Positions 1,104 through 2,188 of a DNA stretch of 6,126 bases are shown piece after piece. The stretch is from a virus (taxonomy: Duplodnaviria; Heunggongvirae; Uroviricota; Caudoviricetes): positions 1 to 6,126 of IMG/VR virus record IMGVR_UViG_2703718811_000001. One strand, 5' to 3'. The notes beneath the pieces were generated by a model, which did not search any database, was not told where the DNA came from, and was given only the letters and a program-made list of their open reading frames with translations. Both the position numbers and the translations under genes were made by a program. The first letter of the stretch is position 1. Every line of letters begins with the position of its first letter.

Positions 1104-1817
1104 ATGAGCGCAAAAAAGAAACCGTTAACACAAGAGCAGCTTGAGGACGCACGTCGCCTTAAAGCTATTTATGAAAAAAAGAAAAATGAGCTTGGCTTAT
1201 CCCAAGAATCTGTCGCAGACAAGATGGGGATGGGGCAGTCAGGTGTTGGTGCTTTATTTAATGGCATCAATGCATTAAATGCTTATAACGCAGCATTGCT
1301 TGCAAAAATTCTCAACGTTAGCGTTGAAGAATTTAGCCCTTCAATCGCCAGAGAAATCTACGAGATGTATGAAGCGGTTAGTATGCAGCCGTCACTTAGA
1401 AGTGAGTATGAGTACCCTGTTTTTTCTCATGTTCAGGCCGGGATGTTCTCGCCTGAGCTTAGAACCTTTACCAAAGGTGATGCGGAGAGATGGGTAAGCA
1501 CAACCAAAAAAGCCAGTGATTCTGCATTTTGGCTTGAGGTTGAAGGTAACTCAATGACCGCACCAACAGGTTCCAAACCCAGTTTTCCTGACGGGATGTT
1601 AATTCTTGTTGACCCTGAGCAGGCTGTTGAGCCAGGTGATTTCTGCATAGCCAGACTTGGGGGTGATGAGTTTACCTTCAAGAAACTGATCAGGGATAGC
1701 GGTCAGGTGTTTTTACAGCCACTAAACCCACAATACCCAATGATCCCATGCAATGAGAGTTGTTCCGTTGTGGGGAAAGTTATCGCCAGTCAATGGCCTG
1801 AAGAGACGTTTGGGTGA
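1104..1817 (+). CDS. cI: CI repressor (237 aa), lambda immunity type
   Basis: The protein matches lambda CI along its whole length, with N-terminal HTH domain ([21 protein letters not shown]) and C-terminal LexA-like autocleavage domain. Only two differences from lambda as recalled (T3A and K to N in AKILNVSV). Confidence 0.98.
1799..1817 (+). repeat. Direct repeat copy 1: last five cI codons plus stop (TGAAGAGACGTTTGGGTGA)
   Basis: The same 19 bp recur at 2170-2188 with one mismatch (G/A), bracketing the 113-aa ORF. Confidence 0.85.
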
Positions 1818-1826
1818 GGAGGATAG

Positions 1827-2168
1827 ATGGCGTTCACTGACCTTGAATATCAAGCGGTCAAAAAAGAAGTTCACCAATTCATTGAAAGCATAAGGCCGCC
1901 TGAACATATCCGCAATGAACTGGATATTGTTTATAGCATCAATGACCAAACGATAGATATCGGCGAACAGCGCCCCGTGTGGCAGGGCAACCCAGGTGAA
2001 ACAAACATCCTGCCATCAGCAAGAATCAAGTACATACGTTCTCTGGATAGATGGAAAATCTATTGGATGCGGAAGGATATGAAATGGCATCAGTACAGTA
2101 CTGAACTTTCGCTGACTGATGCGCTTGAGCTTGTGCGTGCTGACCCGGATTGCTGCTTCTTCGGATGA
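1827..2168 (+). CDS. Hypothetical protein (113 aa), first gene of the cluster in the rex position
   Basis: SD GAGGAGG lies 4 nt upstream of the ATG, 9 nt after the cI stop, so it is co-transcribed with cI from PRM/pRE. No recognisable motif. It is not RexA (279 aa in lambda). Confidence 0.7.
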   Translation: MAFTDLEYQAVKKEVHQFIESIRPPEHIRNELDIVYSINDQTIDIGEQRPVWQGNPGETNILPSARIKYIRSLDRWKIYWMRKDMKWHQYSTELSLTDALELVRADPDCCFFG

Positions 2169-2169
2169 G

Positions 2170-2188
2170 TGAAGAGACGTTTGGATGA
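2170..2188 (+). repeat. Direct repeat copy 2: duplicate of the cI 3' terminus (TGAAGAGACGTTTGGATGA), would encode EETFG-stop
   Basis: 18/19 identical to 1799-1817, placed immediately after the stop of the 113-aa ORF. Confidence 0.85.

Follow-up and report, generated by a model that had tools for sequence, protein, structure and literature searches.

A duplicated repressor tail flanks a DUF3024 gene and probably marks a portable one-gene module of lambdoid prophages

Results

In a lambda-immunity prophage segment, the 19 nt that end the cI repressor gene recur immediately past the next gene, which encodes a 113-aa DUF3024 protein. We consider it probable that the second copy (R2) is a fossil of a repressor tail and that, together with the tail of cI itself (R1), it flanks an old portable one-gene module that is swapped by recombination. 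Judged from its occurrences in sequenced loci, the unit formed by R1, a Shine-Dalgarno (S-D) sequence, the DUF3024 gene and R2 is an old portable module, associated with at least four repressor types and at least five downstream modules.

Layout of the window

The window (the whole 6,126-nt stretch of DNA that was analysed) is a segment of a lambdoid prophage of lambda immunity, as judged from its list of open reading frames (ORFs) and from comparison of its cI. Over positions 272-5233, the window shares 99.7% identity with a prophage carried by E. coli RM10410, and this near-identical prophage encodes bet and exo. The features of the window are as follows:

803-1003, minus strand: cro (ORF list)
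1104-1817, plus strand: cI repressor, 237 aa, lambda immunity type (Pfam HTH_3 and Peptidase_S24)
1791-1817, plus strand: conserved repressor-tail patch QWPEETFG-stop, which contains R1; putative left homology arm of the module
1818-1826, plus strand: GGAGGATAG, S-D and spacer of the DUF3024 gene (sequence reading)
1827-2168, plus strand: 113-aa DUF3024 gene, cargo of the module (PF11225, PDC-S43, phrog_3467)
2170-2188, plus strand: R2, probable non-coding fossil of the last 19 nt of the repressor gene (sequence match to R1)
2170-2207, plus strand: crossover patch, 38 nt, identical in both parental types (sole overlap of two homologies)
2189-2207, plus strand: terminator relic, left arm and loop, TGGATGGTCGCAGAGATGC (hairpin comparison with DUF3024-less phages)
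2239-2673, plus strand: 144-aa gene, first of the downstream pair (so annotated in HK542 and HK244)
2670-3290, plus strand: 206-aa gene, second of the pair (phrog_5820, E=1e-76; ORF list)
about 3297-3328, plus strand: Timm-like intrinsic terminator at the end of the cI operon (terminator scan)
3510-3538: pL, with the N gene beyond

The cI protein of the window is identical to lambda cI at 235 of 237 residues, and it has the N-terminal HTH and C-terminal S24 autopeptidase domain of an S24 repressor as well as the lambda immunity sequence. The terminator scan of the cI operon returned a single terminator, at 3297, and the annotation of HK244 places Timm at the same position. The 206-aa protein has a hydrophobic segment at its C-terminal end. 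For the gene before it, PGAP annotates a product of 162 aa that starts at ATG 2185, although two observations favour 144 aa: ATG 2239 has its own AGGAG 5 nt upstream, and the phrog_5893 profile begins at residue 21 of the 162-aa ORF. We conclude that the 162-aa reading is probably a fortuitous extension of the 144-aa gene.

The R1/R2 repeat

R1 (TGAAGAGACGTTTGGGTGA, 1799-1817) consists of the final five codons of cI and the stop codon. R2 (TGAAGAGACGTTTGGATGA, 2170-2188) starts 1 nt past the stop of the 113-aa ORF and matches R1 at 18 of 19 positions, the first 15 being exact. R2 can still be read as EETFG-stop; the ATGs at 2185 and 2188 share bases with its TGA. Thus, the description given in the first-pass annotation, of a 19-bp repeat with one mismatch bracketing the 113-aa gene, with a second copy that reads EETFG-stop and whose stop overlaps the two ATGs, is borne out by the sequence. 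The same annotation held that a 15-bp perfect match is improbable by chance, and this proved correct: two matches to the repeat occurred in none of 200 dinucleotide-preserving shuffles, and by chance a stretch of 6,126 nt should contain about 0.017 exact 15-mer direct pairs. A chance match or an assembly artefact, for which nothing speaks except the short length of the repeat, would also have to account for the recurrence of the same structure in many independent complete genomes, in phage contigs and in several genera; we dismiss this explanation, whose probability is close to nil.

The conserved units are larger than the 19-nt repeat. On the left, conservation extends over about 27 nt (1791-1817), and homology to modules that lie behind other repressors starts at 1791-1794. 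On the right, the conserved unit is R2 plus the next 19 nt (2170-2207), and it is homologous to the repressor tail and downstream sequence of phages that lack the gene. Among 5426 complete E. coli genomes, DUF3024 is present at ≥95% identity in 227. It is joined to the 144/206 pair, behind any repressor, in 18, of which 6 have a lambda-type cI tail contiguous with DUF3024 and the pair; the join of DUF3024 to the pair is also found in 11 IMG/VR contigs.

The cargo gene

The 113-aa protein matches PF11225 over residues 4-113 (E=2e-31, 108.7 bits against a cut-off of 24.9) and the PADLOC candidate defence family PDC-S43 over residues 1-113 (E=7e-42), as well as phrog_3467. A search by sequence found no homologue with a solved structure. 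A confident AlphaFold model consists of an alpha helix, five beta strands and a second alpha helix, and a fold search with this model returned generic neighbours only. Literature searches for DUF3024, and for HK244 together with 'immunity region', gave no match, and the one mention of PDC-S43 in the literature searched is as a prediction only. In VT2-Sakai-type phages, the DUF3024 gene is a pseudogene.

The S-D sequence of the DUF3024 gene (GGAGG) is strong, begins right at the cI stop and is conserved in the cross-genus alignment. No promoter- or terminator-like site was found on the plus strand from 1817 to 2239, which suggests that the gene would be transcribed together with cI from pRM in the lysogen, at the position that rexAB occupies in lambda. 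GC content is 45.9% for the DUF3024 gene vs 45.2% for cI, so there is no compositional contrast. By analogy with rexAB in lambda, the protein is most likely a prophage-expressed exclusion or defence factor; given its predicted expression with the repressor, DUF3024/PDC-S43 is a sensible candidate for exclusion assays.

Sequence beyond R2 is a relic of the repressor's own terminator

In phages with an empty site, the repressor tail is followed by an intact hairpin (AAAGGTCGCACAGAAGTGCGGCCTTTTTT; -20.4 kcal/mol, z=-5.1). The window version of this hairpin is disrupted and forms no significant structure (z=-1.1). The 19 nt past R2 correspond to the left arm and loop of the terminator, and R2 plus this relic would therefore be a copy of a repressor tail with its terminator, an arrangement that stands intact in DUF3024-less phages. 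The module lies precisely between the stop of the repressor gene and the former terminator of that gene. It had been proposed that cI was ancestrally coupled directly to the 144/206-aa pair. That coupling does exist as an alternative arrangement (see below), but these comparisons support cI plus its intrinsic terminator, rather than cI plus the 144/206 pair, as the likely original target.

Filled and empty alleles coexist

An empty-site variant, with the repressor followed directly by the downstream gene, had been suggested as a check, and such variants were found repeatedly. HK542 and HK244, which were reportedly deposited by Degnan and colleagues in 2007, have lambda immunity and a cI that directly adjoins the 144/206 pair (...TTTGGGTGATGATAAGTCGCCGAGATGC joined to TCGTAGAGC). 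A lambda-type repressor tail abuts the pair in 32 of 5426 complete E. coli genomes, and several IMG/VR contigs likewise have no gene between a repressor ending in this tail and the 144/206-aa pair. E. coli WCHEC040047 carries an exact empty allele, ...CAGTGGCCTGAAGAGACGTTTGGATGA joined to TGGATGGTCGCAGAGATGCTCG, that matches the flanks of the window; its single repeat is a hybrid, with the left context of R1, the A variant of R2 and the sequence downstream of R2. Three further types of empty site occur in IMG/VR: a lambda-type cI followed by the intrinsic terminator TGAAAGGTCGCACAGAAGTGCGGCCTTTTTT; a repressor of a type that we call A, followed by non-coding tail relics and then the same terminator; and a 215-aa repressor, E3, that directly adjoins the 144/206 pair. 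Hence, several repressor types occur with both filled and empty alleles.

We also considered whether the repeat accompanies this cI wherever it occurs, as would be the case for a conserved functional element. It does not: among 80 loci there are at least 23 different continuations after the cI stop, and a second tail copy is found only after DUF3024. The complementary suggestion, that related phages would carry different cargo between the repeats, failed for E. coli phages. Neither the 3 kb downstream of the cI stop, searched in 80 loci with the lambda-type tail, nor 51 IMG/VR stretches with the repeat and the hairpin, of which 33 follow DUF3024 and 18 follow a repressor tail, held any other cargo between repeats. 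Extra small ORFs between the tail relic and DUF3024 were seen only in a Salmonella locus (L254).

The empty alleles could equally be read as deletions of filled ones by recombination between R1 and R2; the sequences give no direction. The filled state would then be ancestral in this lineage, and the empty alleles of the WCHEC040047, E3 and HK542 types would be precise R1×R2 deletions. The hybrid repeat of WCHEC040047, which combines the left context of R1 with the G-to-A variant and downstream sequence of R2, fits such a crossover, and the pseudogene in VT2-Sakai indicates that the cargo is dispensable. However, these alleles and the window are not isogenic pairs, since the repressors of WCHEC040047 and the E3-bearing phages differ from the cI of the window, and HK542 is no recent deletion product because it differs at 5 of the 19 nt past the repeat. 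In addition, a search of IMG/VR for the lambda-cI context joined to a window-type patch found none, and the flanks of the window itself indicate gain by crossover. We regard deletion as a possible but doubtful origin of the empty alleles.

The window is a recombinant at R2

The flanks in question have different closest relatives. Positions 272-2207 are 99.1% identical to two phages (L072 and L100) that carry lambda cI, DUF3024, R2 and the kinase module described below, and positions 2170-3328 are 99.5% identical to three phages (L159, L161 and L166) in which the E3 repressor directly abuts the 144/206 pair. HK542, with its cI directly abutting the pair, matches both sides of the window at 96-97% identity. 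Exchange by recombination at the repeat is visible here because the two best relatives of the window overlap only in 2170-2207. Alignment with these relatives shows the window to be a recombinant, with its crossover within the 38-nt patch of R2 and terminator relic. This crossover joined a lambda-cI/DUF3024 phage to a phage whose repressor abuts the 144/206 pair.

The minimal segments for efficient pairing are 23-27 bp for Red-beta and 31-34 bp for RecA (PMC3945230), and the 38-nt patch is longer than both. The repressor genes involved share a similar island: the last 27 nt of the lambda cI and E3 repressor genes are identical at 25 of 27 positions, vs about 45-50% identity over the preceding 150 nt (13-15/30 in each comparison window). 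Moreover, homology of the module breaks off at the outer ends of the repeats, and mosaic breakpoints fall at 1791-1794, 2170 and 2207. The sequence thus has what is expected of module exchange, namely an island of identity at a gene boundary with breakpoints on that island.

Consistent with portability, the segment from 1791/1794 to 2207 is found at 98.5% identity behind a different repressor in E. coli MFDS1001074, 2000-3039 and 2014C-4423, the homology ending at window position 2192 in 2014C-4423. In these three strains, R1 is itself a non-coding relic (CAGTGGCCTGAAGAGACGTTTGGGTAA) that lies 24 nt past the repressor stop. Across 61 IMG/VR loci, four repressor contexts (lambda cI, A, a further type B, and a 241-aa type) and five downstream modules occurred in 10 combinations. 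The downstream modules comprise the 144/206 pair, a Ser/Thr kinase gene preceded by a 153-aa gene, and three more; the 153-aa/kinase pair often comes right behind the DUF3024 module. Among phages that all carry DUF3024, flanks could also be shuffled via the 342-bp gene itself rather than via the repeats. It had been suggested that the 113-aa gene was inserted or exchanged by recombination at the cI terminus, with the duplication as the scar. The exchange part of this proposal is supported by the overlap at 2170-2207, but an insertion scar made in this phage, or in a cI-144/206 ancestor, is contradicted by the finding that the repeats travel with the gene across genera.

The duplication is old and its copies are conserved

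Homologues of DUF3024 with 59-88% amino acid identity are found in prophages of Salmonella, Enterobacter, Klebsiella, Kluyvera, Yersinia, Rahnella and Erwinia. Both repeats flank the gene in Erwinia, Klebsiella and Enterobacter as well, and R2 is kept after DUF3024 in E. coli, Erwinia, Enterobacter, Klebsiella and Salmonella; recognisable R1 and R2 span five genera. In the Salmonella locus L254, R2 is accompanied by a lambda-type relic that lies farther off, some 400 nt upstream of DUF3024; degenerate copies of the repeats are seen in an IMG/VR lineage (L066). Between Erwinia and E. coli, the block comprising R1, DUF3024, R2, the hairpin, the 153-aa gene and the kinase gene is collinear at 69-75% nucleotide identity; in Enterobacter, homology spans R1 to R2 exactly. 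These comparisons support a duplication that would predate about 30-37% nucleotide divergence, and the presence of the same repeat in all E. coli-type loci and in Erwinia, Klebsiella and Enterobacter indicates one old event. A scan of GTDB genomes with the DUF3024 alignment yielded only distant chromosomal homologues, at 35-47% identity, that are uninformative on the repeats.

Between genera, R2 is 68-89% identical, as compared with 39-59% at third codon positions in DUF3024 (binomial P per pair for R2 between 2e-4 and 1e-2). Therefore, the repeats are not drifting neutrally, and the non-coding copies are either selected or re-templated by recombination. If they are selected, R2 might be a cis-acting element, such as a termination-reinitiation context (TGATG/ATGA) or a site of RNA processing or stability. 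This would fit the conservation of non-coding R1 and R2 far above synonymous sites across genera, as well as the overlap, in empty alleles, of the repressor stop with the ATG of the 162-aa frame annotated by PGAP (ATGA). However, the sequence past R2 varies (terminator, 153-aa/kinase pair, 144/206 pair and others), the ATGs in the D1 context open a frame of only 9 codons, and the 144-aa start has its own AGGAG, with the family profile beginning there. There is also no Rfam match anywhere in the window, and the window version of the hairpin has no significant structure (z=-1.1). We consider a selected cis function improbable, and favour re-templating from genuine, protein-constrained repressor tails.

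Two genera have a different repeat. The direct repeat around DUF3024 measures 21 nt in Kluyvera, where its sequence is that of the type-B repressor tail; two Yersinia species have a 12-15-nt repeat that overlaps the DUF3024 stop codon. In each case, 0/300 shuffles reached the observed score. An exact-pattern scan of IMG/VR found no empty site for the Kluyvera-type repeat. In addition, the R1 and R2 of one locus can carry the same lineage-specific variant (GGTG in Klebsiella, TTCGG in Erwinia). The Kluyvera and Yersinia repeats hint that flanking duplications arose more than once. Together with the shared variants, they fit gene conversion or flank replacement, and leave room for a recurrent process that generates duplications.

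Such a process could be a dedicated mechanism of insertion at repressor 3′ ends, with the repeats as target-site duplications of about 12-24 nt made each time. A single gene with direct repeats that start 0-1 nt past its stop has the look of such an insertion, as does the use of a different repressor tail in Kluyvera and of yet another sequence in Yersinia, and the variants common to R1 and R2 fit it too. Against this, neither a recombinase nor a transposase is encoded in the module, terminal inverted repeats are absent, repeat length is variable, and the distance from repeat to ATG ranges from 9 to 29 nt between lineages. The E. coli and Erwinia blocks share one event, since they are collinear including the hairpin, and the shared variants are explained equally well by gene conversion or by re-templating from local tails. 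We judge a dedicated insertion mechanism to be a long shot.

Discussion

The reading that we prefer, a repressor-tail fossil at the right end of a module swapped by recombination, implies a scheme. The repeats would act as short homology arms for recombination by phage (Red-type) or host functions, so that the gene could be gained or lost by any prophage with this tail at the end of its repressor, and repeated recombination with genuine repressor tails would keep the non-coding copies. The original duplication may go back to a single, ancient replacement event, which would be its simplest origin: an incoming segment with a repressor gene and DUF3024 would have crossed over within homologous sequence at its left end, and its right end would have been joined illegitimately, some 19-24 nt short of the end of the resident repressor gene. 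This first event could have been homology-facilitated illegitimate recombination or unequal crossover. A stronger version, in which the tails are arms that the module itself carries and maintains, or else the product of recurrent duplication-generating insertion at repressor 3′ ends, is prompted by the conservation of the repeats above synonymous sites, the variants shared by R1 and R2, and the differing repeats of Kluyvera and Yersinia. We find this stronger version unlikely; if true, small defence-type genes would spread as arm-bearing cassettes across enterobacterial lambdoid prophages without a dedicated recombinase.

The DUF3024 gene occupies the place, between the cI stop and Timm/pL, that is taken by rexA-rexB in lambda and by the stk kinase region in 933W-type phages. 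Like these accessory genes, it has the same orientation as cI and no promoter of its own, and it lies in a region that is variable among phages sharing a cI. Unlike rexAB, it encodes a single 113-aa protein without similarity to RexA or RexB, and it is bracketed by duplicated repressor tails. Morons of lambdoid phages are said to have been described by Juhala and colleagues in 2000 and by Hendrix and colleagues. DUF3024 resembles a moron in being an extra gene between genes that are adjacent in HK542, HK244 and WCHEC040047, and in its predicted expression from the prophage. It is not a classical moron, however: it has no promoter or terminator of its own at 1817-2239 and no GC contrast (45.9% vs 45.2%), and it is predicted to ride on the pRM transcript.

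Boundary or 'linker' sequences at mosaic junctions were reportedly recognised by Susskind and Botstein in 1978 and by Clark and colleagues in 2001. 'HR traces' have been found at mosaic junctions (De Paepe et al. 2014, PMC3945230). The locus described here is similar, with an island of 25/27 nt at a gene boundary, breakpoints on it and a length compatible with Red-beta. It differs from linkers in that the boundary is duplicated on either side of one gene, which gives the gene its own pair of arms, and in that non-coding copies persist across genera.

Homology-facilitated illegitimate recombination was reportedly characterised by de Vries and Wackernagel in 2002, in natural transformation and not in phage crosses. 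The first event proposed here is alike in using the repressor gene as a homologous anchor with one illegitimate joint to insert foreign DNA. Such a joint, if placed within the resident copy, would duplicate the end of the anchor; here the process is a putative origin. A promoterless single gene with direct repeats and with filled and empty sites is also reminiscent of integron cassettes and of the target-site duplications of transposons. Unlike these, the module has no attC, integrase, transposase or terminal inverted repeat, and its repeats are the coding tail of the neighbouring gene. No integrase was found in the window or the flanking prophage, and instead of imperfect inverted attC sites the module is flanked by coding-tail copies in direct orientation, which argues against an integron cassette. 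We also reject a transposon, given that the 371-nt insert holds only the DUF3024 ORF and has no inverted repeat at its ends.

We conclude that the locus exemplifies, at good resolution, the known mosaicism of lambdoid phages at a conserved boundary sequence, with a candidate defence gene as cargo. It provides a base-pair-resolved, naturally replicated example of the trade in prophage-expressed accessory (candidate defence) genes among temperate phages. Filled, empty and recombinant alleles are all present in sequenced strains, and therefore the debated roles of short-homology and illegitimate recombination are directly testable here.

R2 appears to be one more of the repressor-tail fossils that lie behind prophage repressor genes. 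The lambda-type tail is found as non-coding sequence behind repressors A, B and the 241-aa type, and the tail of the type-B repressor (...IGRVFWSSHSW-stop) is found as a relic behind repressor A. Lambda itself has such a relic: 2 nt past the stop of its own cI lies a type-B tail, GGCAAGGTGTTCTGGTCGGCGCATAGCTGA (GKVFWSAHS-stop), that matches the real type-B tail at 27 of 33 positions, a score reached by none of 5000 shuffles. The DNA just past prophage repressor genes, lambda cI included, is thus a readable record of past immunity swaps.

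Relatives and neighbours of the DUF3024 gene

DUF3024 proteins with 35–47% identity are widespread in non-enteric bacteria, for example in Halomonas, Vibrio, Desulfobacterales and Verrucomicrobia (loci L174–L253), and we therefore conclude that the prophage copies are one clade within a much broader family. Among the closer relatives, the copy in VT2-Sakai-type Stx phage (L002, 3421–3765; 88% identity) is a pseudogene that carries two or more frameshifts as well as stops, and this pseudogene is also found in hundreds of O157:H7 genomes. The R2 repeat that follows it is degenerate; the terminator hairpin is intact.

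From E. coli to Erwinia, the DUF3024 gene keeps its linkage with genes for a 153-aa protein and a Ser/Thr kinase and with a 47–54-aa ORF, at 69–75% nucleotide identity:

L171 (Erwinia aphidicola), 3001–5130: DUF3024/153-aa/kinase/47–54-aa ORF block
L004, 3037–5115: the same block

This linkage may mean that the genes form a functional cluster and are not adjacent by chance. In a Salmonella locus (L254, 2066–2500), ~400 nt carrying small hydrophobic ORFs separates a relic of a lambda-type repressor tail from DUF3024, the only case we found with extra material within the repeat-bounded interval.

A repressor-tail relic in phage lambda

Phage lambda itself carries a repressor relic, 2 nt after the cI stop:

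L262 (phage lambda, NC_001416), 37193–37224: 3′-terminal relic from another family of S24 repressors

The relic matches at 27/33 nt and reads GKVFWSAHS-stop. It suggests that the immunity gene of lambda was replaced in the past.

Other features of the window

The genes that follow DUF3024 occupy the rexAB position:

2185–3290: gene pair encoding proteins of 144/162 aa and 206 aa

The start of the first gene differs among records, giving 144 or 162 aa, and the 206-aa protein has a hydrophobic segment at its C-terminus. Pfam and PADLOC give no significant assignment for either protein; the sole assignments of the pair are phrog_5893 and phrog_5820, both families without an assigned function.

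Putative boxB hairpins lie 3′ of cro and 3′ of pL, the expected places of the nutR and nutL boxB elements, within a 19-nt inverted repeat pair:

751–769, minus strand: repeat copy containing the hairpin GCGCTGACAAAGCGC
3602–3620, plus strand: repeat copy containing the same hairpin

We take the loop of this hairpin to be closer to the P22-type than to the lambda boxB, in contrast to the operators and cI of the window, which are lambda-type.

A junction near 272–276 involves the following features:

60–335, minus strand: N-terminal fragment of a phage N-6-adenine methyltransferase, fused to an IS end
368–664: cII, adjoining the methyltransferase fragment

O, P, ren and ninB, which are present between these two genes in the RM10410 prophage, are absent there in the window, and this prophage copy is therefore probably defective.

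Both window ends are right ends of an IS3-family element:

1–104 and 6020–6123: inverted copies, 98% complementary to each other

These ends have 96–97% identity to an annotated IS of E. coli 2000-3039, and the 5.9-kb immunity segment is thus bracketed by two inverted IS copies.
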